Assembly: GCA_964577975.1 (NCBI GenBank)
Contig: CAZOBB010000026.1
Location: forward strand, 3,120-67,119
From: an uncultured Thermodesulfobacteriota bacterium
GTDB lineage: Bacteria; Desulfobacterota; S145-22
Direction: 5' to 3'
DNA length: 64,000 nt
Part shown: piece after piece, positions 24,281 to 63,964 of the stretch
Layout of the letters: every line of letters starts with the position of its first letter
How positions within the stretch are numbered: position 1 is the first letter of the stretch
Made by a program: the position numbers and the translations under genes
The notes under the pieces: model-generated
What the model was told of the DNA's origin: nothing
Databases searched by the model: none
Seen by the model: the letters and a program-made list of their open reading frames with translations, nothing else

Positions 24281-24401
24281 AGGTTGGTGAGGAAGGAATA
24301 GGCAGGTTCTATGGGAGCTCGAAAGGCGAAAAACTTGACATACTTAGAGGGGATTGATAAAAAATAAATGCCGTTTTAACCATGAAAAAAAGGGGCCGAT
24401 T

Positions 24402-25994: not shown

Positions 25995-26047
25995 GAGGTT
26001 TTAGACCGCGAAGGGAAAACGAAGGAATTCAGTAAAAGGAGGGGGCG

Positions 26048-27343: not shown

Positions 27344-27359
27344 GAGAAAGGGAGCTGGT

Positions 27360-28226: not shown

Positions 28227-28240
28227 TCAAGGAGTGAGGG

Positions 28241-28723: not shown

Positions 28724-28742
28724 GGACGTCGGGAGGAAGGGA

Positions 28743-31136
28743 ATGAGCGAATACCTATTTGTGGGAAAGGATATCCCCCGGACAGCGGAGGTAGATAAAG
28801 TAACGGGGCGAGCCGTTTATATCAACGATTTGAAGCGTCCCGGTATGTTGTACGGAAAGATAAAATACAGCGAGTATGCCCATGCCAGGATTAGGCATAT
28901 CGATACGTCGAAGGCAAAGCGGCTTCCGGGTGTGAAAGCCGTGATCACGGGATACGACATTCCCGATGTGCGGGTAGGTTTTCTGAAAGATCAAACGGTT
29001 CTCAAGAAAGACAAAGTGCGCCAATTTCGGGATGAAGTAGCGGCCGTGGCGGCTATCAGCCCTGAAATCGCCGAGGAGGCGTGCGATCTCATCAAGGTGG
29101 AATATGAGGAACTTCCCGGCGTTTTTGACCCCTTCGAGGCCATGAAGGAAGACGCTCCCTTGATCCACGAGGTGGACGCGAGGGGCCGTCCCATACGAAC
29201 GAACGTGCTTCCATTGCCGTGGAAGTTTGAGGCTGGAGATATCGAAGCAGGCCGGGCCAAGTCGGCCTATGTCGTCGAAGACAAGGTTCAAACCACATGG
29301 GTAAATCAATGTTGTATGGGCACGAGTGGTTGTATCGCGGAATTTGACATGAACAATAACCTGACCCTCTACAATCAGACGAATGTCATCTTCTGGGACA
29401 AGCGCCGCATTCTTGAGTATTTTGCCCAGATAGGATTGAAGAACAGCAAGGTTCGTGTGGTGAATCCCATCGTGGGAGGGAGCTTTGGAACAAAACTCGA
29501 TACCGACATCTATGAGTTTATCTGTATCCAGCTGGCTTTGATCACCCGGAAACCGGTCAAAATCATCTTCACGCGAGAAGAAGAATTCTTTGCCTTGCCT
29601 CCCCGGCAACCTGCCGTTTTCGAGATCGAACAAGGCTGCGACAAAGAGGGACGGCTCACCTTTCGTCGGGCCACGGCGGTGTTGGATAACGGTGCCTACA
29701 CCTCGTGGGGAGCCACGACCCCTTCCGTGATGATGATGCCGATTTCTTCCCTGTACCGGGTTCCCAATGTCTATTTTGAAGCCAAGTGCGTATATACGAA
29801 TAACATCTACTGTCAGGCGATGCGGGGATATGGGAATCCGCAGGCAACGTTTGCGGTGGAGACTTCCATGGATCGTCTGGCGGAAGAAGCGGGCATCGAT
29901 CCTGCCGAATTTAGGCTCATCAACACCAACAAACCGGGAGACGAGACGCCGATGAGGTTGAAGATAACCTCGTGCGGGCTGGAAGAATGCATTCGTGGCG
30001 TCAAAGAGAAGCTGGGATGGGATAAGAAACGGGGAAAGCGGAATGGGCGAGGAGTGGGAATGGCCTCGTTGATCCATGTGGCGGGGGGTGCCCGGGTTTA
30101 CAAGTCGGATGGTCATGGAATGATTATCAAGGTGGATGAACATGGGCATGTGGACGTGATGTCGGGAGGCACGGATCAGGGGCAGGGATCCCCCACGGCA
30201 TTGGCGCAGATCATCGCGGAGGCGCTCGGGTTCAGACCTGACGATATCAATCTAGTGTTCGGAGACACGGCGTTTGGATTGTGGGATGCGGGAACGCATG
30301 CGAGCCGTCATACCTTTATCGCTGGGAACGCGGCATTGAAGGCGTGTGCGAAGGTCAAACGCCAAATTCTGGAGCTTGCCGTTGAGAAAATGCCGAAGAT
30401 CATTCAACAGCAGATCAAAAGAAAGAAGAGGAAAGATCCCGATTTCAAAGAGCCCGACCTCGATTTTGACCTTATCTCAGATCCCAAGAACCTGGATATC
30501 AAAAATCGAACCGTCTTCTGCGTGAAGGATCCAGAGAATCCCTATTTCCGTATGGACGTGAGTCGCATCCTCCGTGAAGCGTTGGACGTGGGGACCGGAG
30601 AAAGCAAGGTCGTCGTGGCAGAGGCGTTTTACGATCCTCCCACCGAAATGCTGGATAGGGAATTCAAGGGGAACCTTTCTTGCACGTATGCCTTTGGAAC
30701 AACGGGTGTGGAAGTGGAAGTGGACGAAAAGACGGGGGAAGTGAAGATCCTTCAGCTTTACGCCGCCCACGATGTGGGAAAGGCCATCAACCCAACCCTT
30801 ATCAAAGGACAGATATACGGAGCAGGGTATATGGGCGTGGGGTATGGTCTGACGGAGGAAATGAAGCTGGAAAAGGGGAGGGTAATGAACCCCAACTTCC
30901 TGGATTACAAAATGCTTACCGCGAAAGACGCCATCCCCGTTTATCCGATGATTGTTGAAACGGATGAGAAGGATGGACCTTTTGGGGCGAAGGGAATAGG
31001 AGAGCCAGGATTGGTTCCGACGGCACCCGCCATCGCCAATGCGGTTTACGACGCGGTGGGGGTGCGGATCACGGACCTTCCCATAACCCCGGAGAAGGTG
31101 TTGAAAGCGCTCAAGGAGAAAAGACAAGGAAAGTAA
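28743..31136 (+). CDS. xanthine dehydrogenase family molybdopterin-binding large subunit (aldehyde oxidoreductase / purine hydroxylase-like)
   Basis: The 797-aa protein has an a/b hammerhead plus MoCo-binding domains, including the GSFGTKLD and YRVPNVYFEAKCVYTNN motifs. Confidence 0.85.
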   Translation: MSEYLFVGKDIPRTAEVDKVTGRAVYINDLKRPGMLYGKIKYSEYAHARIRHIDTSKAKRLPGVKAVITGYDIPDVRVGFLKDQTVLKKDKVRQFRDEVAAVAAISPEIAEEACDLIKVEYEELPGVFDPFEAMKEDAPLIHEVDARGRPIRTNVLPLPWKFEAGDIEAGRAKSAYVVEDKVQTTWVNQCCMGTSGCIAEFDMNNNLTLYNQTNVIFWDKRRILEYFAQIGLKNSKVRVVNPIVGGSFGTKLDTDIYEFICIQLALITRKPVKIIFTREEEFFALPPRQPAVFEIEQGCDKEGRLTFRRATAVLDNGAYTSWGATTPSVMMMPISSLYRVPNVYFEAKCVYTNNIYCQAMRGYGNPQATFAVETSMDRLAEEAGIDPAEFRLINTNKPGDETPMRLKITSCGLEECIRGVKEKLGWDKKRGKRNGRGVGMASLIHVAGGARVYKSDGHGMIIKVDEHGHVDVMSGGTDQGQGSPTALAQIIAEALGFRPDDINLVFGDTAFGLWDAGTHASRHTFIAGNAALKACAKVKRQILELAVEKMPKIIQQQIKRKKRKDPDFKEPDLDFDLISDPKNLDIKNRTVFCVKDPENPYFRMDVSRILREALDVGTGESKVVVAEAFYDPPTEMLDREFKGNLSCTYAFGTTGVEVEVDEKTGEVKILQLYAAHDVGKAINPTLIKGQIYGAGYMGVGYGLTEEMKLEKGRVMNPNFLDYKMLTAKDAIPVYPMIVETDEKDGPFGAKGIGEPGLVPTAPAIANAVYDAVGVRITDLPITPEKVLKALKEKRQGK

Positions 31137-47490: not shown

Positions 47491-47612
47491 CTCCTTTGTA
47501 ATCTTTTTCTCGTCATGACCAAGTCTTTTTATCTCAAAAATACCAAAAAATGGCAAGGTTGCTTTTGGGGACAGGTCTTGCATTTTTCGTGGAAGGGATT
47601 ATTATTATGCCC

Positions 47613-48515
47613 ATGGCGAGGCAGCGTCGGTTTGAGTACCCGGGAGGGATTTATTATATTAGAGCTCGGGGTGTGGAAAATGAAATCTTTAAAGATGAAA
47701 GTGATCGGAAGAGATTTCTAGATATTCTTTCAGAGACGGTGTATCGATTCAAATGGTTGTGCCACTCATATTGCTTGTTAAACGACCACTATCACCTGAT
47801 TTTGGAAACCCCTTACGGCAATCTTTCCAAGGGCATGAGGCAGATAAACGGCCTTTACACACAGAGCTTCAATAGAAAATATAGGCGGCGTGGAGCTTTG
47901 TTCAAAGGGAGATTCAAATCGGTCGTCTTCGAAAAAAAGGGGTACCTATTGCCGTTAAACCGCCATCTCGTCCTGAATCCTGTTAGGAGTGGATTGGTAG
48001 GATCGCCGGATAGATGGCGGTGGAGCAGCTATTTGCCCACGGTGGAAGAGGAAGAAGCGCCCCCGTTTCTTTTTACGGGATTTATTCTGTCCCTTTTTTC
48101 TAAAGAGAACAGGGCATTGGCGATAGAAAAGTACAAACGATTTATTTTCAGTGGTGAGGCGGAAAAATTCTCATGGCGCGACCTAAAATTCCAAATTTTC
48201 CTTGGGAGCGATTTTTTTATAGAGAAGATACGCCAGATGTTTATGGTGCATAAAGTTCCCAAACGTGATAGAAGGTCCCTATCGGAAAATGGCGTGCGGG
48301 AAGTTTTGGACCCCCTGTTGGGAAGGGGTTGGACATCAAGAAAGGATAGAGATGCGCTTATTTACGAGGCCTATATTCACCATGGACTGACCCTGGGTGA
48401 AATTGCAGCTTACCTTGGTGTACATACGGCAACAGTGAGCCGAGCTGTTAAACGAGTTGAAAGGAGAAATTCGTGGGTGAAGAAACGAATGGGAGGACAA
48501 GTATGGGTAAAATAA
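47613..48515 (+). CDS. Y1 HUH (IS200/REP-associated tyrosine transposase-like) protein fused to a C-terminal HTH domain
   Basis: Its N-terminus matches the Y1 transposase pattern ([20 protein letters not shown]...), and it has an HuH motif (DHYHLIL) and a C-terminal HTH ([21 protein letters not shown]). There is no tnpB partner and no recognisable terminal hairpins. Confidence 0.6.
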
Positions 48516-50997: not shown

Positions 50998-51036
50998 AAT
51001 GGTCTTCGTTTGGATAGGTAAGACAGGCTATGAAAT

Positions 51037-51063
51037 TTTTCACAAGGTAGGCGTGAAAAGGAG
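51037..51063 (+). promoter_or_regulatory. inverted repeat TTTTCAC-N9-GTGAAAA in the nuoA leader whose 3' arm overlaps the AAAAGGAG ribosome binding site
   Basis: Read directly from the sequence: the 7-bp arms are at 51037-51043 and 51053-51059, the SD at 51056-51063, and the nuoA ATG at 51069. Confidence 0.3.
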
Positions 51064-51068
51064 CAGAG

Positions 51069-51425
51069 ATGTTACGAGCGTATCTTCCTGTTTTGATTTT
51101 GGTCATGGTAGTGGTGGGGTTCGCTGTTTTTGCGGTGGTTGCCTCGCACCTGCTGGGTCAGCACAAACCCACTCGAGTCAAAATGGCTCCATACGAATGT
51201 GGAATCGCATCTCCGGGGTATGGGAAGACGCGTATCCCCCTCCGCTACTATACGGTAGCGATGCTCTTTCTTCTCTTCGACTTGGAAGTCGTCTTTCTCT
51301 ACCCGTGGGCTGTCACATTCAAGAAGCTAGGCGTTTTTGGTCTGGTTGAAATGCTGATTTTTATCGGCATTCTCCTTGTCGGGTATATCTATGTGTGGAA
51401 AAAAGGAGCTTTGGAATGGGATTAG
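51069..51425 (+). CDS. nuoA: NADH-quinone oxidoreductase subunit A
   Basis: It has 3 TM helices and the NuoA motif (YECGI...[15 protein letters not shown]). Confidence 0.9.
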
Positions 51426-51928
51426 AAACTGTTTTCGGAAAAAGCCCTATTACGGCAGGCCTTGACAAGATCGTCAACTGGGCCAGAAAAAATTCGATCT
51501 GGCCCGTTACATTTGGGTTGGCGTGCTGCGCGTTGGAGATGATGGTCGCCTCTTCAGCCTCCTACGACATTGCACGTTTTGGGGCGGAGGTTTTTCGCCC
51601 TTCACCCAGACAAGCGGATTTGATGATAGTGGCAGGGACCGTTACGAAGAAGATGGCACCCATTTTGAGGCGGATCTATGATCAGATGCCGGAACCGAAA
51701 TGGGTCATTGCCTATGGCACGTGCGCCTGTTCGGGGGGGATGTTTCAGAGTTACAACGTCGTCCAGGGAGTGGATACCATCGTGCCGGTGGATGTTTATA
51801 TCCCGGGGTGCCCTCCGCGGCCTGAGGCGTTATTGGCCGGAATCATCAAACTTCAAAAGAAAATCGAAAAAGAATCATTGCTCGACAGGAAAGACGAAAA
51901 GAGCGCGCTTATTTCCGCAGAGGGGTAA
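51415..51928 (+). CDS. nuoB: NADH-quinone oxidoreductase subunit B (N2 cluster)
   Basis: It has the [14 protein letters not shown] and GCPP motifs. The start ATG at 51415 overlaps the nuoA end. Confidence 0.9.
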
Positions 51929-51931
51929 ATC

Positions 51932-52414
51932 ATGGACTATCATGAAATGGTTGACCTGATAAAAGAGCGGTTTCCCGAAGCGATCCTTGGTTATAAGATC
52001 TTTCGGGGCGAGTTGACGATAGAGGTCGATTATAGAGAGATTGTTCCCGTTTGTACCTTCTTGAAAGAGGAGGAACCCTTCAGGATGGAGGTGCTGACGG
52101 ATTTGGCGGGTCTCGATTACGGCGTGGAGGCCTCCCCCCGATTCGGTATAGCCTACCTTCTCACCTCTGTGGAACATATTTTTCGCATGAGGGTGAAGAT
52201 TTCGTTTGAAGAAGGGACAGAGATCCCCTCTGTTTCGGGGATATGGAAAAGCGCGGAATGGCCCGAGAGGGAGGCTTGGGAGATGTTTGGGATTCAATTT
52301 GTCAATCATCCCGATTTGCGCAAGCTTCTCTTGCCGGACGATATGAAGGGATACCCTCTTCGGAAAGATTTTCCCACCAAAGGGTATCATTTCGAAGAAC
52401 CTTTTAGGGTATAA
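51932..52414 (+). CDS. nuoC: NADH-quinone oxidoreductase subunit C (30 kDa)
   Basis: It belongs to the NuoC family (EREAWEMFGIQFVNHPDLRKLL) and is not fused to nuoD. Confidence 0.85.
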   Translation: MDYHEMVDLIKERFPEAILGYKIFRGELTIEVDYREIVPVCTFLKEEEPFRMEVLTDLAGLDYGVEASPRFGIAYLLTSVEHIFRMRVKISFEEGTEIPSVSGIWKSAEWPEREAWEMFGIQFVNHPDLRKLLLPDDMKGYPLRKDFPTKGYHFEEPFRV

Positions 52415-52450
52415 GACAGAATGCCCAAATCACGTTGATTGAGGAAAGTG

Positions 52451-53623
52451 ATGGCTGAGACAAGGTACATGACGGTTAATATGGGGCCCCAGCATCCCGC
52501 AACCCATGGGGTTTTGCGTCTTCTTCTGGAATTGGATGGTGAGTATATCGTTAAGACAACCCCTATCATCGGTCATTTGCATCGGGGTGTGGAAAAACTA
52601 GCGGAAGAGCGCACATATCATCAGTTCATCCCCTTCACGGATCGCTTGGACTACACGGCGGGGATGAACAACAACCTTGCCTATGTCATGGCGGTGGAGA
52701 AACTCCTTGGAATCGAGGTGCCCAAGCGTGCCCAGTACATTCGGGTGGCTTTGGCCGAGTTGCAGAGGATCGCTGCCCATCTCATCTGGCTGGGAACCCA
52801 CGCCCTCGACATCGGCGCGATGACGGTATTGTTCTACACGTTCAGGGAACGTGAAACGGTGATCAATATCCTCGAGCACGTGTCCGGGGCTCGTTTGACA
52901 CCAAGTTACATGAGGGTAGGGGGATTGGCCGCGGACGTTCCCGACAACTTCGAGACCCTCGTGATGGATTTCGTTGAAAAATTTCCGGAGTGTATCGATG
53001 GCTATGAAACTCTCTTGACAAAAAACCCTATTTGGCTCCAGCGGACAAAAGGAATTGGGATTTTGTCGAAGGAAGACGCCTTGAACTATGGCGTGACGGG
53101 TCCGGTATTGCGTGGATCGGGCGTCAAATGGGATATACGAAAACAGTTTCCCTATAGCAGTTATGAGGATTTTGATTTCGAGGTCCCCGTGGGGACGGTG
53201 GGTGATGTATATGATCGGTACTTGGTGCGGCTGGAGGAGATGCGCCAGTCTACGCGGATCATCAAGCAGGTCATCACCAATATGCCGTCGGGTGAGATCA
53301 TGGCGGATGATCCAAAGGTAAGCCTCCCCCCGAAAGATAAAGTTTATAACGACATTGATGCGTTGATCCGCCATTTCAAGATCGAGTCTTCCGGTTTCGA
53401 GGTGCCGGAGGGAGAGGTCTTCTTCAGTGCAGAGAATCCCAAGGGGGAATTGGGGTTTTACCTCGTGAGCGACGGCTCCAACATGCCTGCGCGCATAAAG
53501 ATACGGAATCCTTCTTATTACAATCTCGCCGCGCTTCCCAAGATGATCGAGGGGAGCCTCATTGCGGACGTAGTGACAGTCATTGGGAGCATAGATATCG
53601 TGCTGGGTGAAATAGATAAATAA
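52451..53623 (+). CDS. nuoD: NADH-quinone oxidoreductase subunit D (49 kDa)
   Basis: It has the NuoD/NiFe-hydrogenase large-subunit-like pattern (NMGPQHPATHGVLRL...) with an ATG start at 52451. Confidence 0.9.
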   Translation: MAETRYMTVNMGPQHPATHGVLRLLLELDGEYIVKTTPIIGHLHRGVEKLAEERTYHQFIPFTDRLDYTAGMNNNLAYVMAVEKLLGIEVPKRAQYIRVALAELQRIAAHLIWLGTHALDIGAMTVLFYTFRERETVINILEHVSGARLTPSYMRVGGLAADVPDNFETLVMDFVEKFPECIDGYETLLTKNPIWLQRTKGIGILSKEDALNYGVTGPVLRGSGVKWDIRKQFPYSSYEDFDFEVPVGTVGDVYDRYLVRLEEMRQSTRIIKQVITNMPSGEIMADDPKVSLPPKDKVYNDIDALIRHFKIESSGFEVPEGEVFFSAENPKGELGFYLVSDGSNMPARIKIRNPSYYNLAALPKMIEGSLIADVVTVIGSIDIVLGEIDK

Positions 53624-53651: not shown

Positions 53652-55613
53652 ATGGGTGGAGTCCTATTCAGCTGCTGGAACGGAAAGGTTGTTGACAATA
53701 GGGATAAAAAACCGGGAGAGTTTGAGCCGCCGGTAGAGATCGCGCTTCCAGCAGACTTTTTTCAGGGGAAGGACCTCAAAGCCTTCATGGGCTGGGGGGG
53801 ATTTGTCATCAAAGACCCGGAGGTCTCGGTCGTCGCCCTCTCTGTGACGTTTCTCGAAAAGGTGCAAGAAGAATCGTGCGGACAATGTATTCCGTGTCGC
53901 ATTGGAACGAGGGTCATGCTGGACATGATGCGAGATATCGCCTCGGGAAAGGGGAAAAAGGGAGACTTGGATACCCTTTTGTCCTTGGGAGAGACGATAC
54001 GCCGTTCTTCGAAATGCACCATCGGTCAAACCTCTCCCACACCCGTGATGGAGGCGATCAAATACTACCGTGATGAGTTCGAGAAGGCGCTGGAAGGAAA
54101 GACAAAGGGCGGAGGGGGAAAAGGTGTTCATTACCTTTCAAAAGTCACGGCCCCGTGCATGAACGCGTGTCCTTCCCATCTCAACGTCCCCCGTTATGTG
54201 GAATTGATCAAAGATGGGAGGTTTTTGGATTCGCTGGAGATCATCCGGGAGAATACGTGCCTGCCCGGCGTGTTGGGACGCGTTTGCGTGAGGCCATGTG
54301 AATCCAATTGTCGGCGCGCCAATGTGGACGAATCCATATCCATAAAATATTTGAAACGTTTCGCGGCGGATTTCGAGCTAGAAAAACACCACAAACCGAA
54401 ACTTCCCCTCCCCACGCAGAAAAGAGACAAGAAAGTGGGAATTATCGGGGCGGGTCCCGCAGGTGTGACATGCGCCTACTACCTGGCGGAGAAGGGGTAT
54501 CAGGTAACGATATTCGAACGTTTTGGCGAACCGGGTGGGATGTCTGCGATGGGAATCCCCGACTATCGTCTGCCGAGGCCGATTCTCCGAAGAGAGGTGG
54601 AGATCATTCAGTCCATGGGGGTTGAGATCCGCTATAACACCATGGTGGGTCGCGATATCACCATGAAGGAGATACGAGACGAATTCGACGCTGTCTTTAT
54701 CGCCGTCGGCGCGCAAGGAAGCACGAGCATGCGGGTTGAGGGTGAAGATGCAGGATACAAAGGCTTCATTCCGGGGGTAAAATATCTTCTGGATATCAAC
54801 CAAGGCCGCGATCCTTACCCTGAAGGGAAAAAGGTCGTAGTCGTGGGGGGTGGAAACGTTGCCATCGACTGCGTTCGATGTTCTTTCCGGATAGGCAAAG
54901 AGGACGTCAATCTCGTTTACCGTCGAACCAAGAAAGAAATGCCGGCGGACGATGTGGAAATAAGAGATGCGGAAGAGGAAGAGGTAAAATTCCACTTTCT
55001 CTGTAATCCGACACGCATCATCGCGGAGAACGGAAAAGTCGTCGGAGTCGAGCTGATTCGGATGGAGCTTGGAGAACCGGACGAAAGTGGTCGGAGACGG
55101 CCCATTCCGGTGGAAGGATCCGAATTTGTCATTGATACGGATATCATCGTTCCTGCGATCGGACAGGCGATTGATCTTTCCTTCATTGATGCGGATACCC
55201 AGTTGGAGGTCACGAGAAAGAACACCATTGTCGTTGATCCCGAAACGATGATGACGAGCGTGGAAGGTATCTTCTCTGCCGGTGACTGCGTCACGGGACC
55301 TGGGGCGTTGGTCGAAGCGGCCGGCGGAGGAAGGACGGCAGCGTTCAGGATTCACCAGTATCTGAGTGGGGAGGAGGTCAAACGGACCGACGAAGAGCTG
55401 ATGGAGGACTTCTTTTCCGCAATGGGTGTGTATGATCCGAAGGAAGACATAGGCATCATAGATGGGAGGGAGAGAAAACACCTGAAGATGTTGCCGCCTG
55501 AAACGCGAAAGTATACCTTTGACGAAGTCGAGTCGGGTTTTCCGGTCAACGAGGCAATCGAAGAGGCAGATCGGTGCCTCCGGTGCTATAGAATCGGGCT
55601 GGTGGCGTTATAG
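53652..55613 (+). CDS. fusion protein: NuoF C-terminal [4Fe-4S] N3 domain (no FMN/NADH-binding domain) + GltD/SudA-type Fe-S / FAD / NAD(P)H oxidoreductase (SfrB-like)
   Basis: Residues ~70-150 align with the NuoF C-terminus (ESCGQCIPCRIG...KCTIGQ...AIKYYRDEFE). Then comes a GltD-type dicluster region (CMNACPSHLNVPRYV...CVRPCESNCRR). Two Rossmann dinucleotide sites follow (GIIGAGPAGVTCAYYLAEKG and VVVVGGGNVAIDC), and the C-terminus has GDCVTGPGALVEAAGGGR. There is no GGxGG FMN motif. Confidence 0.75.
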   Translation: MGGVLFSCWNGKVVDNRDKKPGEFEPPVEIALPADFFQGKDLKAFMGWGGFVIKDPEVSVVALSVTFLEKVQEESCGQCIPCRIGTRVMLDMMRDIASGKGKKGDLDTLLSLGETIRRSSKCTIGQTSPTPVMEAIKYYRDEFEKALEGKTKGGGGKGVHYLSKVTAPCMNACPSHLNVPRYVELIKDGRFLDSLEIIRENTCLPGVLGRVCVRPCESNCRRANVDESISIKYLKRFAADFELEKHHKPKLPLPTQKRDKKVGIIGAGPAGVTCAYYLAEKGYQVTIFERFGEPGGMSAMGIPDYRLPRPILRREVEIIQSMGVEIRYNTMVGRDITMKEIRDEFDAVFIAVGAQGSTSMRVEGEDAGYKGFIPGVKYLLDINQGRDPYPEGKKVVVVGGGNVAIDCVRCSFRIGKEDVNLVYRRTKKEMPADDVEIRDAEEEEVKFHFLCNPTRIIAENGKVVGVELIRMELGEPDESGRRRPIPVEGSEFVIDTDIIVPAIGQAIDLSFIDADTQLEVTRKNTIVVDPETMMTSVEGIFSAGDCVTGPGALVEAAGGGRTAAFRIHQYLSGEEVKRTDEELMEDFFSAMGVYDPKEDIGIIDGRERKHLKMLPPETRKYTFDEVESGFPVNEAIEEADRCLRCYRIGLVAL

Positions 55614-55661: not shown

Positions 55662-58133
55662 ATGACGGTGCATATAACAATAAACGGAAAAGAGATCGAA
55701 GCGGAAGAGGGAAAGACGATCCTCGAGGTGGCGAGGGAAAACGATATCTACATCCCAACGCTTTGTTATCATTCACACCTTCATCCCATTGGCTCCTGCC
55801 GCTTGTGTGTAGTCGACATTGAGGGTTATTCCATGCCTATGGCGGCCTGTACCACCCCTGTTATGGATGGAATCCGGGTTCATACAAATACGGGCAGGGT
55901 GAAGAAGATGCGGCGGCAAGCGATGGAGTTGATTCTTGTCAACCATCCCCTCGACTGTCCCGTATGCGATAAAGGAGGAGAGTGCCGTCTTCAAGATCTT
56001 GCCTATGAGTTCGGAATAGATGAGCAGCCCTTCTATGCCAAAAAACCGGAAAGGGAGATTGTCCCTTTTTCAACGCCTCTCATCCGCCAGTGGGTGGATC
56101 GCTGTGTGGTCTGTCTCCGTTGCGTACACGTATGCCACGAACTCGTTGGAAACGCCGCCATCGATGTTAAAGAGACGGGCTACCGATCGGTAATCTATCC
56201 CGTAGCTCCGGAAAGGTGCGCATCCTGTGGTGAATGCCTTTCGGTCTGTCCTGTGGGTGCTTTGACAGAGGCGGTCAATCCCTTGCGTGGGCGCGTGTGG
56301 CAAATAGACCGGGAACAGACGACGTGTGGCCAGTGTGGTATAGGGTGCCAGATGGAAATAAGCGTCTATGACAACAAGCCGGTCAATGTGAAGACGGATG
56401 GGGTTCTTGATGCGGCGCCGAATCATGGGAGCCTGTGCGCTCGGGGAAGGTTTTTCTACGACTATGTAAACAGCGACGAACGCGTTGTGCGTCCGAAGAT
56501 CAGAAAGGGAGAGGAGTGGGTCAACACCACGTGGGAGGAGGCTTATGAAGAGGCGATCAATCGGCTTCGGGAGATAACGCGAGAGTATGGGACTGATGCA
56601 GTGGGGTTCGTGGTGTCGTCCCGGCTGGTGAATGAAGACCTGGTAAAAATATATGAGTTTGCCCTAAAAGGAATGGAGATAGTAAACATAGACACCTCTT
56701 CTAGGTTCGATCTCAGGGTTCATGAGGATATTCTAAAGGCATGGACGTCCGCGGGAATATCGCGTTCCCTGAAAGACCTGAAGGAGGCGGATCTCGTGGT
56801 GGTCGCGGGTGGAGACATCGATCTTACCGCTCAGATCGTGGCAAACAACGTTCGTTATGCGCAGCGTCTGAGAGACGCAAAGGTCATTACGATTAATCCC
56901 TACAAAACACGGCTTGATGAGATTGCGGATGCTCCCATGTATTGCAACGCCGGAACGGAGATTCCTGTGTTTTATGGCCTAATCAAAGAGGCTTTTTCTG
57001 AGCGGGAGACGTTTACATCAGATGAAGGGTGGAACTCTTTTGTAAAGGCATTGGACGATTATTCCGGCGAAGAGGTTTGTGATGCGGCTGGTGTCGATAA
57101 AAAGACGTTTGAAGAGGCTGCTAAATTGTTGAAAGAAAAAGAGACGGTAGCCTTTGTGGTAGGGACAAGCCTAGGGCAAATAGTGAATGGATCGCAAAAC
57201 ATAAAAGCACTCGCCAACGTGGCGCTTGCCTGTAAAAAGGCGGGTAAAAAAGTCGTGTGGATCCCGGTGAGCGCCTATGCCAACGCGATGGGGTCATTGT
57301 GGATCGATCAGAGGGAGAAGAAGGAGCGGGGCCTTACCTACGGCGAGATGATACAGGCGGCGCAGAATGAAAAGCTGAAAGGACTCGTGGTGGTGGAAGA
57401 CGATCCATTGGCCTTCCTGCCCGATACGGAATACGTAAGAGAGGCCCTGAAGAAACTCGACTTTCTCATGGTGGTTGACCTGTTTGAAACAGCCACATCG
57501 GCCTATGCTCATCTCTTCCTTCCTTCCTGCAGTTTCATGGAAAAGGAGGGTACCTTCATCAACGTGGAGGGAAGAAAAGGTGCCGTTCGAAAGATGATGA
57601 CCCCCCTTAATGAAACGAAAACGGCGGGTAATATCTTTATGGAGCTGGCCCTGAAAATGAAGCTCGACATCACCGTGAGCGAGGAGGGCGTGAAGGAAAA
57701 GGTTGATTCGTTGGGTGAAGGTGCCGCGGAAAGCTCTTTGGGATTCTTTGATGTGGCCTATCAAGCGGTCAGGGCGGAAGAAAATGGACATCTCTTCCTC
57801 TTGTGCCCGGATCACCTCTATAACCATCATTACGGCATCGAGCGGGTTTACGCGACGGCGATAGATAAGCTAGACAAGACGCCCGAATACCTCATGAATC
57901 CTAAGGACGCCGCGAGATTTGGGATCGAAGAGGGGATGGAAGCGGTGTTGTCAACGGAGAAGGGAAAGATAACGGTACGGCCGACGCTGTCCGAAGACGT
58001 AAAGGAAGGCCACATGGTTGTAAAATCCCACTACCGGCCAACGGGAATTAAGAGATTGTTTCCTTTCGAGCTGGATGAAGAAGTGAAAACCCCTATGAGT
58101 GGATTCGTCCGCGTAAAATTGCAGAAGCCATAA
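55662..58133 (+). CDS. nuoG: NuoG-like 75-kDa subunit (2Fe-2S N1b, His-ligated N5, N4 and N7-type cluster motifs + degenerate molybdopterin-oxidoreductase domain); SfrA/FdhA-like alternative possible
   Basis: It has CYHSHLHPIGSCRLC (2Fe-2S), HPLDCPVCDKGGECRLQ (the HxxxCxxCx5C N5 motif), CVVCLRCVHVC and CASCGECLSVCP (4Fe-4S), and CGQCGIGC (N7/Fdh-type), and is 823 aa. Confidence 0.8.
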   Translation: MTVHITINGKEIEAEEGKTILEVARENDIYIPTLCYHSHLHPIGSCRLCVVDIEGYSMPMAACTTPVMDGIRVHTNTGRVKKMRRQAMELILVNHPLDCPVCDKGGECRLQDLAYEFGIDEQPFYAKKPEREIVPFSTPLIRQWVDRCVVCLRCVHVCHELVGNAAIDVKETGYRSVIYPVAPERCASCGECLSVCPVGALTEAVNPLRGRVWQIDREQTTCGQCGIGCQMEISVYDNKPVNVKTDGVLDAAPNHGSLCARGRFFYDYVNSDERVVRPKIRKGEEWVNTTWEEAYEEAINRLREITREYGTDAVGFVVSSRLVNEDLVKIYEFALKGMEIVNIDTSSRFDLRVHEDILKAWTSAGISRSLKDLKEADLVVVAGGDIDLTAQIVANNVRYAQRLRDAKVITINPYKTRLDEIADAPMYCNAGTEIPVFYGLIKEAFSERETFTSDEGWNSFVKALDDYSGEEVCDAAGVDKKTFEEAAKLLKEKETVAFVVGTSLGQIVNGSQNIKALANVALACKKAGKKVVWIPVSAYANAMGSLWIDQREKKERGLTYGEMIQAAQNEKLKGLVVVEDDPLAFLPDTEYVREALKKLDFLMVVDLFETATSAYAHLFLPSCSFMEKEGTFINVEGRKGAVRKMMTPLNETKTAGNIFMELALKMKLDITVSEEGVKEKVDSLGEGAAESSLGFFDVAYQAVRAEENGHLFLLCPDHLYNHHYGIERVYATAIDKLDKTPEYLMNPKDAARFGIEEGMEAVLSTEKGKITVRPTLSEDVKEGHMVVKSHYRPTGIKRLFPFELDEEVKTPMSGFVRVKLQKP

Positions 58134-58148: not shown

Positions 58149-59123
58149 ATGGCATTGTTAATTGAATCCATCGTGAAAGTCATCGTTGTTTTTGGGATCT
58201 TCATGGGATGTGTCGCGTACATGACCCTTTTGGAGAGAAAGGTGCTGGGGCGTGTTCAGGTGCGTTACGGCCCCAACCGTGTCGGGCCGTTTGGGATTTG
58301 GCAACCACTCGCGGATGGCGTGAAGGCCTTTTTCAAGGAGGACTTGATCCCTGCCAACGCCGACAAGCCCCTTTTCATCATCGCGCCGATGATAACCGTG
58401 GCGTCTGCCTTGTGTTTGATTGCGGTGATTCCTTTTGGCGACAAGATCACCCTGTTTGGAAGAACGATCTATTTGAGAATCACCGATTTGGACGTGGGTA
58501 TCCTTTATCTCTTTGCCTTCGCCTCCCTTGGGGAATATGGGGTCGTCCTGGGCGGCTGGGCGTCGGGAAACAAATACGGCGTAATCGGGGCGTTACGGGC
58601 CGCCGCGCAGATGATCAGCTACGAATTGGCGCTGAGCCTGTCCGTGATCGGGGTCATCATGATCACCGGTTCCCTCAGCCTTTCCGCTATCGTGGAACAC
58701 CAAGCGCACATGTGGAATATCGTCTACCAGCCTTTCGCGTTCGTATTCTACATGGTGTGTGCCTTGGCCGAGATCAATCGGACCCCGTTTGACATGCCGG
58801 AGGCGGAAGCGGAACTGGCATGTGGGTATAATATTGAGTACAGTAGCATGAAATTCGCCCTCTTCTTCATGGGGGAATACGCACATCTCGTGGTCGTATG
58901 CGCCGTGGCGACGACCCTGTTTCTTGGAGGATGGCAGGGGCCGTTCCTTCCAGGAGTCGTATGGTTCTTGCTTAAGACATTTGTCTTGGTTTTCTTCTGT
59001 ATATGGGAGAGGGGAACCTTTCCGAGGTTGCGTTACGATCAGATCATGCACTTCGGATGGAAGATTTTGCTCCCGTTGACGTTGGCGAATGTGGTGGTAA
59101 CCGCCATCGTGATGGCCTTATAG
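58149..59123 (+). CDS. nuoH: NADH-quinone oxidoreductase subunit H
   Basis: It has 8 TM helices and the NuoH motifs (MTLLERKVLGRVQVRYGPNRVGPFG... EYA). Confidence 0.9.
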   Translation: MALLIESIVKVIVVFGIFMGCVAYMTLLERKVLGRVQVRYGPNRVGPFGIWQPLADGVKAFFKEDLIPANADKPLFIIAPMITVASALCLIAVIPFGDKITLFGRTIYLRITDLDVGILYLFAFASLGEYGVVLGGWASGNKYGVIGALRAAAQMISYELALSLSVIGVIMITGSLSLSAIVEHQAHMWNIVYQPFAFVFYMVCALAEINRTPFDMPEAEAELACGYNIEYSSMKFALFFMGEYAHLVVVCAVATTLFLGGWQGPFLPGVVWFLLKTFVLVFFCIWERGTFPRLRYDQIMHFGWKILLPLTLANVVVTAIVMAL

Positions 59124-59136
59124 GAGGGACGATACG

Positions 59137-59550
59137 ATGATTATTCCGCTGATAAAGGGTTTGAAATATACATTGGGGAGATTCTTTTCCAAGCCGATTA
59201 CCATCCAGTACCCCGAGGAACGACGGGAGGTTGCGCCAAGGTGGCGAGGAATCCATTATTTCAACGTGGATGAAAATGGGACGTTCAAGTGCGTGGCGTG
59301 TGGGTTGTGCGCGGCGGTTTGTCCCTCACAGTGTATCAAGATAACGGCGGGGGAAGACGAAGAAGGCGTGCGTTATCCCATGCATTATGAAATCAATGCG
59401 ATCCGGTGCATCTATTGCGGTTTCTGCGTAGAGGCCTGCCCGGTAGATGCGATCAGGATGGGGTCGAAATATGATTTCACCGATTACAAACGCGAAGACT
59501 TCATATTAACCATTGATCGCTTGGTCTCTCAGGATTACTTGGAGAAATAG
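59137..59550 (+). CDS. nuoI: NADH-quinone oxidoreductase subunit I (2x[4Fe-4S])
   Basis: It has two CxxCxxCxxxCP motifs (CVACGLCAAVCP; CIYCGFCVEACP). Confidence 0.9.
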   Translation: MIIPLIKGLKYTLGRFFSKPITIQYPEERREVAPRWRGIHYFNVDENGTFKCVACGLCAAVCPSQCIKITAGEDEEGVRYPMHYEINAIRCIYCGFCVEACPVDAIRMGSKYDFTDYKREDFILTIDRLVSQDYLEK

Positions 59551-59561
59551 GAGTAGAAGGC

Positions 59562-60089
59562 ATGGCTGTTCTAATAGCGAAATGGGTGATTTTTATCATC
59601 GTAAGCCTCTTGGCGATTGCGTCCTCCGTCTTGATGATTACGCGAAGGAACACATTGCACAGCGCGCTGTTCATGATACTGGCGTTCGTGGCCTCGGCTA
59701 TCCTTTATCTTCTGTTGGGATGCCAGTTTCTCGCCATGTTGCAGATTATCGTCTACGCGGGGGCCGTCATGATGCTGATCATCTTCGTCATCATGATGCT
59801 GGATTTGAAAAAGGAAGAACAGACGAAGATGAAGGTTACGAAGACGAAAGTAACGGGTGTTATTCTGAGTGTCCTATTCATGTTGATGCTCATTTTGGTG
59901 ATGGGATTGAACGCCATAAAGGGGAAAATGGGAAATCTGAGCTCGATCGGGGACGCGAAAACCATCGGGTCTCTCTTGTTTACGAGGTTTCTGCTCCCCT
60001 TCGAGGTGGCGTCGATCCTTCTATTGGCTGCCATGGTGGGTGCCGTCATGTTGAGTAAAAAGAAAGCCTTTGGAGGAGAGGATCAATGA
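59562..60089 (+). CDS. nuoJ: NADH-quinone oxidoreductase subunit J
   Basis: It has 5 TM helices matching the NuoJ family, in conserved operon position. Confidence 0.85.
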
Positions 60090-60388
60090 TACCGGTGCAA
60101 GCCTATTTTGTCGTGAGTGCGATCCTGTTTGTAATTGGTGTTATCGGGGCTATCACACGCCGGAATGCCATTGTGGTGTTCATGTCCATCGAGATGATGC
60201 TGAATGCCGTGAACCTTATCATGATAGCCGCGTCGAGCTATCTCCATTCCATTGATGGTGTGATGTTCGTTTTCTTCGTGATGACGGTCGCCGCGGCGGA
60301 GGCGGCGGTCGGGCTCGCCATCTTCCTGATGATGTATCGCAAGAAAGACACCATAAAACTAGACGAGTTTAACCTGCTCAAAGGATAA
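60086..60388 (+). CDS. nuoK: NADH-quinone oxidoreductase subunit K
   Basis: It is 100 aa with 3 TM helices and conserved Glu residues, and overlaps nuoJ by 4 nt. Confidence 0.9.
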
Positions 60389-60404: not shown

Positions 60405-62354
60405 ATGACGTCGTATATCTGGCTGATTCCTTTCTTCCCGATGGTCGGTTTTTTGATCAACGGCCTGCTAGGTGTCAAATTCAAGCGGTCGTGGATTCAC
60501 GTGATCGCGGCATCCGCGATTGGACTTTCGTTTCTCACGACCGTTATCCTCTTCTTTGAACTTCTGAAGGTAGAACCACACGCGAGGCATTTCGAAAATG
60601 TCATCTTCGACTGGATCGTGGCAGGAAAGTTTCACACCCAGATCGCGTTCATGCTGGATCCTCTCTCTATCGTCATGGCCCTGGTGGTAACGGGGGTTAG
60701 CTTCATGATCCACATCTATTCCGGTGGATACATGCATGACGATCCGGGGTTCCGGCGGTTTTTCGTGTATCTCAACCTTTTCGTTTTTTCCATGTTGATA
60801 CTCATCCTATCGAACAGCTTCCTCCTCATGTTCGTGGGATGGGAAGGTGTGGGACTTTGTTCATATCTGCTGATCGGGTTCTGGTTTGAGAAGGATTCAG
60901 CCGCGAACGCAGGAAAGAAGGCGTTCGTGGTCAACCGGATCGGTGACTTTGGTTTCATCCTGGGAATCTTCCTCATCGTGGCGACGCTCAGCAAACATGG
61001 AATCTGGTCGCTCAATTTTGATGTCGTGTTCAAACACGCCGAGCTCTTCAGCCCGGCAACGGTGACGGCGATTACCCTGCTGTTATTTGTCGGTGCGACG
61101 GGGAAATCGGCACAGATTCCGTTGTATGTATGGCTGCCTGACGCGATGGAAGGTCCCACCCCCGTAAGCTCTCTGATCCATGCCGCGACGATGGTGACCG
61201 CGGGAGTCTACATGATCGCGCGGTGCAACGTGCTCTACAGCATGGCGCCGATAAGCCTGGAGGTGGTGGCGGTTATCGGCGTGCTCACGGCCTTCTTTTC
61301 GGCCACGATCGCCTTGGTACAGAACGACTTCAAGCGGATACTGGCCTATTCCACGGTAAGCCAGTTGGGATATATGTTCGTCGGTGTCGGAGTAGGGGCA
61401 TTCAGTGCGGGTATCTTCCACCTCATGACCCACGCCTTTTTCAAAGGACTTCTCTTCCTGGCGTCCGGAAGTGTCATGCACGCCATGGCGGGCGAGTTGA
61501 ACATACAGAAGATGGGTGGTCTCAAGAAGTTTATGCCCGTTACCTTTTGGGTTTTCATGATGGCAACGTTGGCCATCGCGGGGATTCCCGGTTTTTCCGG
61601 GTTCTTCAGCAAGGATGAGATCCTGTGGCAGGCCTTCAGCCGCGGACACACGTTTGTGTGGTTGCTTGGAACAATAGCGGCGGGCTTGACGGCGTTTTAT
61701 ATGTTCCGCCTCGCCTTCGTCGCCTTTTTCGGAGAACCGCGCATCGACGAGGAGGTTAAACATCACCTTCACGAATCGCCCAAGGTTATGACGTATCCCA
61801 TGATCGTGTTGGCCGTTGCCTCCGTCGTGGGAGGATACGTGGGGATTCCCCCTGTTTTGGGCGGGTCGAATCGGTTCGAGAAATTCCTGGAGCCCATCAT
61901 TGGAAGTGGCATGCACGAGGCAGTCAAGGAAGGGGCACACGCGGCCATGCATCATTCCGCGTCGCTCGAATTCCTCATGATGGGCATATCGGTGGCCGTT
62001 GCGATCATTGGAATTGCCGTGGCCTATATGTTTTATATCAAGAATCCAAACATCCCCGTGCGACTCGCAGAAGGAATGAAAGGCTTGTACACGCTTCTCT
62101 ACAACAAATACTTCGTGGACGAATTCTACAACAGCGTATTCGTTCAGGGGACGAAGGATTTCGCCACGTTTTTGTGGCAGAAAGTGGATGTAGGGGTCGT
62201 GGACGCCATCGTCAATGGAGTTGCCAAGGTTGTGGAACTCTGCGGCAGTGGCATTCGCAGATTGCAGACGGGGTATGTCCAGACCTATGCCTTTTCGGTT
62301 CTGGTGGGTGGAATAGCGGTATTTATTTACTTTTTCTGGGAGTCACTGTTTTAG
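60405..62354 (+). CDS. nuoL: NADH-quinone oxidoreductase subunit L
   Basis: It is a 649-aa antiporter-like subunit with a long C-terminal extension. Confidence 0.9.
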   Translation: MTSYIWLIPFFPMVGFLINGLLGVKFKRSWIHVIAASAIGLSFLTTVILFFELLKVEPHARHFENVIFDWIVAGKFHTQIAFMLDPLSIVMALVVTGVSFMIHIYSGGYMHDDPGFRRFFVYLNLFVFSMLILILSNSFLLMFVGWEGVGLCSYLLIGFWFEKDSAANAGKKAFVVNRIGDFGFILGIFLIVATLSKHGIWSLNFDVVFKHAELFSPATVTAITLLLFVGATGKSAQIPLYVWLPDAMEGPTPVSSLIHAATMVTAGVYMIARCNVLYSMAPISLEVVAVIGVLTAFFSATIALVQNDFKRILAYSTVSQLGYMFVGVGVGAFSAGIFHLMTHAFFKGLLFLASGSVMHAMAGELNIQKMGGLKKFMPVTFWVFMMATLAIAGIPGFSGFFSKDEILWQAFSRGHTFVWLLGTIAAGLTAFYMFRLAFVAFFGEPRIDEEVKHHLHESPKVMTYPMIVLAVASVVGGYVGIPPVLGGSNRFEKFLEPIIGSGMHEAVKEGAHAAMHHSASLEFLMMGISVAVAIIGIAVAYMFYIKNPNIPVRLAEGMKGLYTLLYNKYFVDEFYNSVFVQGTKDFATFLWQKVDVGVVDAIVNGVAKVVELCGSGIRRLQTGYVQTYAFSVLVGGIAVFIYFFWESLF

Positions 62355-62380: not shown

Positions 62381-63964
62381 ATGGGTGGATTGGCACATAT
62401 TCCGATCTTGAGCATTGTCATCTTTTTCCCGATGGTGGGGGTATTGTTCCTTCTCCTCATCGACAGGGAAAACGAATCGGTTATCAAAGGAACAGCGCTC
62501 GTTTTCTCGATCATCGAGTTTTTCCTTTCGCTTCCCTTGATCGTTCGTTTCAATCCGGGCACAGCGGACTTCCAGTTCGTGGAAAGGGTGCCATGGATCA
62601 AGGCGCTGGGGGTGCAGTATTTTCTGGGAATCGATGGAATCAGCTTGCTGATCGTGATGCTGACCACCTTTTTGACTGTTTTGTGTATCTTGAGTTCGTG
62701 GGACGCCATCAAAAAGAACGTGAAAGAGTACATGATCTCCATGCTCTTCTTGGAGACGGGTATGTTGGGGGCCCTTTTGTCCCTCGACTTGGTTCTTTTC
62801 TATATATTCTGGGAATTGATGTTGATCCCCATGTATCTCCTGATTGGGGTATGGGGCGGCCCGAGGCGCATCTATGCGGCGGTCAAATTCTTCCTGTACA
62901 CGATGGTGGGAAGTGTCTTGATGATGGTGGCCATATTGGCGCTTTACTTCCTCTACCACAAGGCGATGGGGGTATATACCTTTGATATTACGCAATTGTA
63001 TAAACTCAACCTCCCCGTTGGTGTTCAATTATGGATGTTCGCGGCGTTCGCGCTGGCGTTCGCCATCAAGGTCCCCATGTTTCCCTTCCATACGTGGCTG
63101 CCGGACGCCCACACGGAGGCCCCCACGGCGGGAAGCGTCATCCTGGCGGGCGTCCTGTTAAAGATGGGAACCTACGGCTTCATCCGTTTCTGTATTCCTC
63201 TCTTTCCAACGGCGGCGATCAAGTTCACCCCGTTGATCATGCTGTTGGCCGTCATAGGCATCATCTACGGTGCTCTGGTCGCCATGATGCAAAAAGATGT
63301 GAAAAAGCTCGTCGCCTATTCCAGCGTGAGCCACCTGGGATTCGTCATGTTGGGAATGTTCGCGTTGAACATGCAAAGCGTGGAGGGAAGCATCTATCAG
63401 ATGCTGAACCATGGAATCAGCACGGGGGCATTATTTTTGATCGTGGGTATGATCTATGAGCGGCGACACACGCGTTTGATCAAAGACTTCGGGGGATTGG
63501 CCAAACAGTTGCCCATCTTTGCCACCTTCTTCATGATCGCCACGCTCTCGTCCATTGGGCTGCCGGGCACGAACGGCTTCGTGGGTGAGTTCCTCATCTT
63601 ACTGGGGACCTTCAAAGCCAGTCGGCCCTTCGCGGTCTTCGCCGCCACCGGCGTCATCTTGGGTGCCGCCTACATGCTCTGGATGTTCCAGCGCGTGATG
63701 TTTGGAAAACTGGACAAGGAGGAGAACAAGGTTCTCAAGGATTTGAATTGGCGCGAGGTGGTCACCCTTGTCCCCATCGTCATCATGGTGTTTTGGATGG
63801 GAATCTATCCAAAATTCTTCATAGGCAAAATGGAAAAGAGCGTTTCCAGCTTTTTGACGAACGTGCATAAAAAGGTCGAGGCGCGCAGCGTATTGGACAA
63901 CAAAAAGGCTGTGGCGGAGAATCTTTGGAAATCCGGCAGAATCTCAACGGAAAAGGTCAATTAG
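62381..63964 (+). CDS. nuoM: NADH-quinone oxidoreductase subunit M
   Basis: It is a 527-aa antiporter-like subunit ([28 protein letters not shown]). nuoN begins at 63996 at the window edge. Confidence 0.9.

Follow-up and report, generated by a model that had tools for sequence, protein, structure and literature searches.

The stretch analysed here (the window) comprises 64,000 nucleotides of an uncultured Thermodesulfobacteriota bacterium (assembly GCA_964577975.1, contig CAZOBB010000026.1, positions 3,120 to 67,119) and carries a complex I (nuo) operon with two atypical genes between nuoD and nuoH, termed here beta and alpha. The operon reads nuoABCD-beta-alpha-nuoHIJKLM, with intergenic gaps of -31 to +48 nt (Table 1); 28 nt lie between nuoD and beta, 48 nt between beta and alpha, and 15 nt between alpha and nuoH. 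A promoter and terminator scan found no terminator-like sites in the gaps around the pair, which is weak evidence, as the counts were close to the shuffled expectation. Profile searches identified the Q- and P-module genes nuoA to nuoD and nuoH to nuoM, most of them above curated cut-offs, and inspection of the sequences found the ligands of clusters N2 (NuoB) and N6a/b (NuoI) intact. The nuoN gene is expected past the end of the window; a third antiporter-like (NuoM-like) gene lies downstream in three close relatives (L001, L003, and L005, among 91 loci from other assemblies whose gene context was inspected). NuoC aligns solely to positions 7-155 of the 203-position NuoC profile NF004733 and is of FpoC length; short forms of this kind are typical of 11-subunit-type enzymes, so the backbone of the operon may derive from one without nuoEFG. 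Two overlapping open reading frames (ORFs) in different frames lie upstream of nuoB (50999-51425), which starts with GTG; the ORF at 50999-51349 was rejected as nuoA, having no Pfam match, whereas that at 51069-51425 matches Oxidored_q4.

Table 1. Genes and domains of the nuo operon, compared alpha subunits, and other features of the window. Positions refer to the window unless preceded by a locus number.
Feature	Position	Strand	Details
nuoA	51069-51425	+	118 aa; Pfam Oxidored_q4 E 5.5e-38; 31-nt overlap with nuoB start
nuoB	51395-51928	+	177 aa; Oxidored_q6 E 2.5e-31; N2 cluster ligands CC...C...CP
nuoC, short form	51932-52414	+	160 aa; Complex1_30kDa E 4.6e-41
nuoD	52439-53623	+	394 aa; TIGR01962 580 bits (cut-off 459); HPxxHG and RLDY quinone-site motifs
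beta-type fusion, predicted NADPH-oxidising FAD/Fe-S subunit (SfrB/NADP-FDH beta kind)	53652-55613	+	653 aa
beta residues 1-65, family-specific N-terminal segment	53652-53846	+	invariant FSxW..DNR
beta residues 66-145, NuoF-type N3 [4Fe-4S] domain	53847-54086	+	ligands C76, C79, C82, C122
beta residues 166-245, main part of permuted GltD/DPD-type two-[4Fe-4S] domain	54147-54386	+	Fer4_20 positions 29-111
beta residues 261-557, predicted FAD and NADPH folds	54432-55322	+	Pyr_redox_2; GAGPAG, GGGNVA, YRR
beta residues ~620-647, C-terminal tail, permuted first Fer4_20 segment	55509-55592	+	RCLRC
alpha/"NuoG-like" subunit, apparent decayed formate dehydrogenase alpha	55662-58133	+	823 aa; D-L; TIGR01591 299 bits (cut-off 666)
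alpha residues 1-275, Fe-S region	55662-56486	+	Fer2_4, NADH-G_4Fe-4S_3, Fer4_Nqo3, Molybdop_Fe4S4 matches
alpha residues 276-823, degenerate pterin domain	56487-58133	+	D-L for Sec/Cys-His, Ser for Arg, several deletions
nuoH	58149-59123	+	NADHdh E 2.3e-126
nuoI	59137-59550	+	Fer4 family matches; two CxxCxxCxxxCP motifs (N6a/N6b)
nuoJ	59562-60089	+	Oxidored_q3 E 5.1e-40
nuoK	60086-60388	+	Oxidored_q2 E 2.9e-28
nuoL	60405-62354	+	649 aa; NF005141 NuoL 777 bits (cut-off 556)
nuoM	62381-63964	+	527 aa; TIGR01972 NuoM 655 bits
Sec-FDH alpha in nuoG slot, L022	L022:8575-11238		TGA at 9610; intact Sec; TIGR01591 185 + 665 bits for two halves (cut-off 666)
Sec-FDH alpha in nuoG slot, L035	L035:9030-11693		TGA at 10062
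alpha, L007			T-H; TIGR01591 734 bits, above cut-off 666
alpha, L011			active site not alignable; TIGR01591 169 bits (cut-off 666)
ADP-forming acetyl-CoA synthetase-type gene	3569-5662	-	CoA_binding/Succ_CoA_lig/ATP-grasp_5
adenine deaminase-like gene	22145-24280		
phosphoenolpyruvate carboxykinase	24354-25994		inside candidate purine cluster
AMP-binding enzyme	26048-27343		inside candidate purine cluster
xanthine dehydrogenase/aldehyde oxidase-family Mo-binding subunit	28743-31136		

The beta subunit is encoded on the forward strand by an intact ORF of 653 codons with an ATG start and a GGAG-type ribosome-binding site. A Pfam scan found three domains in it, NADH_4Fe-4S (residues 66-145, E 3.8e-27), Fer4_20 (166-245, E 1.4e-23), and Pyr_redox_2 (261-557, E 2.8e-32), and neither the flavin mononucleotide (FMN) domain Complex1_51K nor an SLBB domain. 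The characteristic motifs are ESCGQCIPCRIG (74-85), KCTIGQ (121-126), AIKYYRDEFE (135-144), GIIGAGPAGV (263-272), and VVVVGGGNVAID (395-406). On the NuoF equivalog TIGR01959 (cut-off 559 bits) beta scores 76 bits, with an alignment confined to the last ~107 positions of the model; the GltD models TIGR01317, TIGR01318, and TIGR01316 all fall below their cut-offs, and the neighbours of beta are nuo genes, with no gltB pairing. Residues 1-65 match no Pfam family; an alignment of 18 sequences (homologues 59-91% identical) has invariant columns there at F6, S7, W9, D15, N16, and R17, and the end of the segment aligns to the part of NuoF and HydB that precedes the N3 domain, with alignments to PDB structures beginning at residues 23-44. 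In the PDB, residues ~23-150 are matched by the N3 domains at the C-termini of NuoF, HydB, and HoxF, and the N3 ligands C76, C79, C82, and C122 are invariant in all 18 sequences.

The remainder of beta is a module of the GltD type (dihydropyrimidine dehydrogenase, or DPD, has a similar domain). Cysteines C169, C173, C212, C216, and C220 are invariant in the alignment and C203 is nearly so. The main Fer4_20 match starts at profile position 29, and the C-terminal tail, when scanned alone, matches positions 2-29 (E 2.3e-4), a split that marks the GltD Fe-S domain as circularly permuted. The RCLRC sequence of the tail (C642 and C645), also invariant, appears to provide the missing first CxxC and to complete the ligands for two [4Fe-4S] clusters; readings of the tail as an unrelated extension or a truncated ferredoxin motif were rejected. 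The best sequence and fold matches of residues 166-645 are to StnC/NfnA of the Nfn-Bfu enzymes (PDB 8oh5_C, 9bov_A, and 9n5u_A), with which the permuted C-terminal segment aligns as well, and the portion assigned to flavin adenine dinucleotide (FAD) and NADPH binding resembles in fold the NADPH modules of NfnABC, StnC, NfnI-L, and GltD. The FAD motif GAGPAG (266-271), the NAD(P)H motif GGGNVA (399-404), and the triplet YRR (423-425) are invariant across the alignment; the triplet resembles the HRR that sets NADPH binding in thioredoxin reductase (TrxR) of E. coli. In the homologous StnC, GxGxxA has been interpreted as an NADP(H) motif (PMC7483475). These features predict FAD, NADPH, and three [4Fe-4S] clusters as the cofactors of beta, all presumably occupied.

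The initial annotation had described a single 653-residue ORF that keeps only the N3 domain of NuoF, joined to a GltD/NfnB-type module with two dinucleotide-binding folds, and had called it SfrB-like; the domain matches, invariant motifs, and fold matches agree on each point, and the label accords with the names given to homologues by the Joint Genome Institute (JGI) and with descriptions in the literature. Its "CxxxC...C" dicluster region does belong to a GltD-type two-cluster domain, but forms only part of it, the first CxxC having moved to the tail by permutation. The same annotation held that the operon lacks nuoE and the FMN/NADH domain of NuoF and that an intact Q module and membrane arm are encoded in tight spacing. 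The latter holds for nuoA to nuoD and nuoH to nuoM, with their ligands, the window ending before nuoN. For the former, Pfam-validated NuoF-like (FMN) and NuoE-like proteins from loci of the Bfu type (described below) served as probes; no NuoE and no NuoF FMN domain were found in the 64-kb window by probe or by Pfam, and the gaps leave no room for them. The probes matched solely 53682-54095, the N3 domain, and NuoI; the window is therefore without nuoE and without the NuoF flavin domain.

The product of the gene downstream of beta has a NuoG-type arrangement of cluster sites in its N-terminal region: a [2Fe-2S] site (C35, C46, C49, and C63), a His-ligated [4Fe-4S] site (H95, C99, C102, and C108), two ferredoxin-type [4Fe-4S] sites (C148-158 and C186-196), and an A1/N7-type [4Fe-4S] site (C222, C225, C229, and C259). 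These sites, a dead pterin domain, and a gene position between a flavoprotein gene and nuoH are traits of NuoG; in addition, alpha retains the second ferredoxin-type cluster, as in the alpha subunit of formate dehydrogenase (FDH) and in HydA. The whole protein scores 387 bits on the NuoG equivalog TIGR01973 (cut-off 470); for the pterin domain alone, the FDH alpha model TIGR01591 (cut-off 666) gives 299 bits and the NuoG model 143 bits. By alignment, the metal ligand Cys386 and the adjoining His387 of R. capsulatus FdsA have become Asp-Leu, and multiple alignments place a Ser at the catalytic Arg. An active FDH was rejected, since selenocysteine (Sec) or Cys, His, and Arg are all replaced; an ordinary NuoG is not supported, the score lying below the NuoG cut-off and the pterin domain being more FDH-like. 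The "NuoG" of the window thus appears to be a decayed FDH alpha subunit.

The two parts of alpha are conserved to very different degrees. In the close metagenome-assembled genomes (MAGs; L001-L005), residues 1-215 are 91-94% identical and the pterin domain just 55-56%, with insertions and deletions; core Nuo subunits are mostly 78-97% identical in these relatives, and the Fe-S domain of alpha is about equally conserved. Constraint has therefore been kept on the Fe-S wire and relaxed on the former catalytic domain, the pattern that would be expected if the remaining role of alpha is electron transfer in a complex. As the downstream gene is itself a probable decayed FDH alpha, the substitution would extend beyond NuoEF, which the initial annotation had rightly considered replaced, to the whole NuoEFG module, exchanged for an FdhBA-type pair.

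A family search with beta returned at least 7,940 matches at E <= 1e-20. The best 120 of these are all ~650 aa long with the identical three-domain set; their sources are MAGs of Deltaproteobacteria, Thermodesulfobacteriota, Syntrophorhabdales, and the like. The names of the members of the beta cluster include no cultured organism, and a search of public assemblies for the exact protein of the window gave no match. Databases name the homologues "FAD-dependent oxidoreductase," "dihydropyrimidine dehydrogenase subunit A," or "formate dehydrogenase (NADP+) beta subunit," the last being the JGI name for proteins 59-65% identical to beta.

The order nuoD-beta-alpha-nuoH recurs in 31 of the 91 loci inspected (48-91% identity in beta), all from uncultured Thermodesulfobacteriota-type MAGs, with beta directly after nuoD and/or before nuoH-L. 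Five MAG contigs form a close set (L001-L005; 88-91%), and 26 loci, two of them duplicate places, form a distant one (L007-L024, L026, L027, L029-L031, L035, L041, and L065; 48-66%). In L026 and L030 the operon is rearranged to nuoL-M-(N)-B-C-D-beta-alpha-H-I-J-K, and the pair still stands between nuoD and nuoH. Another ~25 loci have tblastn matches (36-66% identity) that likewise cover residues 1-653 of beta. The arrangement is kept well beyond the genome of the window and is therefore no pseudogene or chance insertion. In L024 (156-5509), a contig that begins at beta, the pair is followed by nuoI and nuoJ, with no nuoH match between alpha and nuoI.

Outside nuo operons, eight loci without nuo genes (L006, L025, L028, L032, L033, L039, L040, and L043) have beta ahead of a true FDH alpha with the catalytic Arg and an in-frame TGA-His (Cys-His in L043), and in seven others, mostly human-gut metagenome contigs (L046, L047, L050, L051, and L054-L056), a ~36%-identical beta precedes an [FeFe]-hydrogenase (Fe_hyd_lg_C). 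The order in which beta lies upstream of an alpha with a NuoG-like Fe-S N-terminus is shared by the window, the stand-alone FDH loci, and the hydrogenase loci. The remaining loci examined are of Stn/Nfn-Bfu or [2Fe-2S]-GltD types. SfrB-like proteins are regarded as NADPH-oxidising partners of hydrogenases, as proposed for HndD1 of Pelobacter (PMC3543383); by analogy, loci such as L046 would encode an NADPH-linked hydrogenase akin to HndD1 with its SfrB-like partner.

We propose, with a probability of roughly 0.6, that beta and alpha are a module of the NADP-dependent FDH/SfrAB kind recruited into the nuoEFG slot, yielding a 13-subunit complex I that acts as an NADPH:menaquinone oxidoreductase. 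The domain content, the conservation of ligands, the loss of the FDH site, the synteny, and the intact Q and P modules are all shown by the sequence and form the basis of this assignment. NADPH would reduce the FAD of beta, from which electrons would pass through the two [4Fe-4S] clusters of the GltD domain to the N3-type cluster of the same subunit. The Fe-S chain of alpha would receive them next, as in the "flavin module/Y-junction" assemblies of FDH, hydrogenase, and complex I, and pass them on through N6a/N6b of NuoI and N2 of NuoB to menaquinone. Transfer would be coupled to proton pumping by NuoHJKALMN and would in principle be reversible. Without a molybdopterin active site, alpha would serve as a wire alone, like canonical NuoG, and the N3 domain would have been retained as an adaptor toward alpha. 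In established structures of canonical complex I, the N3 domain is the part of NuoF that abuts NuoG, so its retention as an adaptor makes structural sense.

Alternative input modules on complex I are an established idea, and the module of the window is none of the known ones. Annotation names and descriptions liken it most to the NADP+-dependent FdhAB of the Moorella type and to SfrAB of Geobacter, in which SfrB is the GltD-like subunit of an NADPH:Fe(III) oxidoreductase (PMC7483475); the architecture of beta and the position of its gene ahead of an alpha with a NuoG-like N-terminus are the same, and the stand-alone relatives (L006, L025, L040, and others) pair beta with a genuine FDH alpha that has Sec, His, and Arg. 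The pair in the window differs in lying between nuoD and nuoH, in having an alpha without Sec/Cys, His, Arg, and part of the pterin domain, and in its predicted acceptor, which is the Q module of complex I and not CO2/formate or a soluble acceptor. With the canonical N module NuoEFG it shares operon position, N3 domain, an Fe-S wire of the NuoG type, and an FDH-like pterin domain that has decayed; the NuoG of canonical enzymes is itself regarded as FDH-related (PMC3144371, PMC10068793). Unlike that module, it has no NuoE with its N1a cluster and no FMN/NADH domain, but FAD/NADPH and two extra [4Fe-4S] clusters instead; unlike canonical NuoG, alpha keeps the second ferredoxin-type cluster and a pterin domain nearer the FDH model, and the pair does not reach the curated cut-off of either NuoF or NuoG.

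The Nuo-Bfu (BfuABC) system, proposed by Schut et al. (2022) for nuo clusters of Geobacter, Deferribacteres, Planctomycetes, and Nitrospirae (PMC9304861), likewise places an alternative input module in the middle of a nuo cluster, where it is predicted to feed menaquinone (PMC9304861). Bfu, however, has an FMN-type BfuB and a NuoE-like BfuC and is proposed to confurcate NADH and ferredoxin, whereas the module described here has neither subunit; as the filter of the Bfu survey required an FMN-type BfuB, that survey would not have captured it. The soluble StnABC/NfnABC (Nfn-Bfu) enzymes provide the best match to the GltD module, permuted segment included, and also set an NADPH module beside a NuoG-like protein; their GltD module is inserted in the NuoG-like subunit and their N3 domain lies in a separate FMN-containing NuoF-like subunit, whereas beta fuses the N3 domain directly to the GltD module and has no FMN subunit. 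In the 12-subunit complex I of Campylobacter and Helicobacter, where NuoG is present, and in Fpo, NuoEF is similarly replaced by donor-specific input (PMC3144371). The replacements there are small non-homologous proteins or flavodoxin, and in Fpo the F420-binding FpoF; neither has an NADPH/FAD GltD module or an FDH-derived alpha. Ferredoxin-type enzymes of 11 subunits are another alternative input arrangement (PMC11238625). In full-text literature searches, neither a beta of the SfrB/FdhB type nor a Sec-FDH was found described as part of a nuo operon, although prior mention is possible.

Several points weigh against a 13-subunit NADPH-oxidising complex. Nuo enzymes of 11 subunits function without NuoEFG, and SfrAB of Geobacter, the closest characterised analogue, is soluble. 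The beta family also occurs in soluble enzymes with a Sec-containing FdhA (L006, L025, L040, and others) or an [FeFe]-hydrogenase (L046 and others). The docking of the pair on NuoI, NuoD, and NuoC and the direction of electron flow are inferred; the preference of beta for NADPH over NADH is suggested by its motifs only, and a canonical nuoEF could be present elsewhere in the genome, beyond the window. The 160-residue NuoC of the window has no C-terminal extension of the kind through which its T. thermophilus counterpart contacts Nqo3 (PMC3144371).

The main rival, which we consider unlikely, is that alpha and beta form a co-transcribed, soluble NADPH oxidoreductase of the SfrAB type in the cytoplasm, with ferredoxin or another compound as acceptor, and that the 11 Nuo subunits assemble on their own into a ferredoxin-dependent complex, the linkage reflecting a shared pathway. 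The family to which beta belongs does work in soluble FDH and hydrogenase enzymes (PMC3543383), SfrAB is an NADPH-dependent soluble enzyme with a weakly NuoG-like alpha (PMC7483475), and the short NuoC is of the 11-subunit, FpoC-like kind; complexes with 11 subunits are common in anaerobes (PMC11238625, PMC12142623). Against this stand the placement of the pair exactly in the nuoEFG slot in 31 loci, rearranged operons included, and the strong constraint on the Fe-S wire of alpha while its catalytic domain decays. NADPH-driven reduction of ferredoxin would, moreover, be uphill without a second substrate, and the operon has no ferredoxin gene.

A 13-subunit assembly could also run in reverse, using the proton-motive force to drive menaquinol:NADP+ reduction and supplying NADPH in sulfate-reducing or syntrophic metabolism; in the relatives with Sec-FDH the equivalent would be reduction of CO2 to formate. 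Complex I is reversible, catalysts for CO2/formate lie in or beside the operon in relatives, and syntrophic Desulfobacterota would need reverse electron transport from menaquinol. The sequence gives no indication of the direction, however, the forward reaction with menaquinone is strongly exergonic, and no obvious menaquinol-generating partner genes were found in the window; we judge this direction improbable. A confurcating or bifurcating module, in which the NfnB-like FAD of beta couples NADPH and a second donor or acceptor such as ferredoxin while feeding quinone, by analogy with NfnSL and the proposed Nuo-Bfu, appears very improbable. The GltD module is homologous to the bifurcating subunit NfnB/NfnI-L, and the proposed Nuo-Bfu is a precedent (PMC9304861), but an NfnA/NfnS-like partner, the FMN site of BfuB, and an additional domain for ferredoxin docking are all missing; the architecture of beta allows one linear chain between FAD and N3, and the GltD module of Stn/Nfn-Bfu is an NADPH site that does not bifurcate. 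Finally, a pseudogenised or frameshifted remnant of nuoE/nuoF, or an assembly artefact, was rejected as next to impossible, as the ORF and its homologues are full-length with invariant ligands and dinucleotide motifs, the same context recurs in many independent assemblies, the 28- and 48-nt gaps are too small for remnants, and no frame of the window has similarity to NuoE or the FMN domain.

Comparison of alpha subunits across loci bears on how the proposed NADPH-oxidising complex I might have arisen. The Sec/Cys-His pair and the catalytic Arg are lost in 18 of the 20 nuo-linked alpha subunits with data and kept in L022 and L035, where the gene order is nuoBCD-beta-alpha-nuoHIJKL and alpha has CARL-U-H-SS, the Arg in NPLRGQN, and a hairpin after the TGA that resembles a selenocysteine insertion sequence (SECIS). 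On TIGR01591 these two score ~850 bits summed, and scores fall from there through L007, which is above the cut-off and 55% identical to the true FdhA of L006, to the window and L011 (Table 1). In a neighbour-joining tree of beta, nuo-linked and stand-alone forms interleave, and the stand-alone L040 and nuo-linked L022, both with Sec and from a common metagenome, are sisters with 100% bootstrap support; the deep nodes of the tree are weak, which also tells against the recruitment proposed. NADP-type FdhBA pairs thus appear to have moved between soluble and nuo contexts, and inside nuo operons alpha seems to tend toward decay into a NuoG-like wire. From the relatives in which Sec is intact, a complex I that oxidises formate (or reduces CO2) is predicted. 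L007 (3036-5072) and L018 (~2263) have, directly upstream of nuoA, an FdhF-type Sec-FDH catalytic subunit without a NuoG-like N-terminus, and in both the nuoG slot is occupied by an alpha that has already degenerated; the FdhF-type gene of L007 is preceded by those for a Fer4 protein and a 1077-aa Fer2_4/Fer4/Pyr_redox_2 protein.

These observations can be read, tentatively and at somewhat under even odds, as a second, independent recruitment of an FDH-derived module onto complex I, this time from an NADP-dependent FdhAB and with all stages extant: soluble Sec-FdhAB (L006 and L040), intact Sec-FDH inside nuo operons (L022 and L035), a recently inactivated alpha that still scores as FDH (L007), and a decayed "NuoG" (the window and L011), the enzyme of the window being a dedicated proton-pumping NADPH:menaquinone oxidoreductase.

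Elsewhere in the window, an IS200-like, Y1 transposase-type ORF (47550-48515) lies a few kb upstream of nuoA; a Y1_Tnp gene is also found upstream of the nuo operon in the distant L009/L010 (981-1868), possibly by coincidence. No functional link to the operon was found for the genes upstream of it in the window (the IS200-like ORF, inositol-1-phosphate synthase, and a 408-aa ORF). An ADP-forming acetyl-CoA synthetase-type gene like that near the start of the window is located upstream of the nuo operon in L011 (650-2707). A candidate purine-catabolism cluster occupies 22145-31136; small ORFs at 27279-28723, ahead of its Mo-binding subunit, may encode the FAD and [2Fe-2S] subunits of that enzyme. 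The GC skew is positive in nearly all 2-kb bins from 1 to 64000, the cumulative skew climbs steadily, and most long genes are on the forward strand; the skew would fit a window that lies entirely within a single replichore.

Textbook accounts usually treat complex I as an NADH enzyme; in the known exceptions its input is exchanged for F420, ferredoxin, flavodoxin, or, as proposed, Bfu; to our knowledge, proton-pumping NADPH:menaquinone oxidoreductase activity has not been described for any characterised complex I. If the assignment made here is right, uncultured anaerobes of the Thermodesulfobacteriota type (formerly Deltaproteobacteria) would possess a direct energy-conserving link between their NADPH and menaquinone pools, and redox balances would be redrawn in metabolic reconstructions that contain genes now annotated as oxidoreductase, dihydropyrimidine dehydrogenase, or FDH beta subunit; relatives such as L022 and L035 would have a formate- and NADPH-driven, proton-pumping menaquinone reductase. 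The canonical N module has long been held to descend from a soluble module of the FDH or hydrogenase type. With living genomes displaying an equivalent recruitment at stages that run from an intact Sec-FDH to a decayed NuoG, this hypothesis of its origin would become directly testable.

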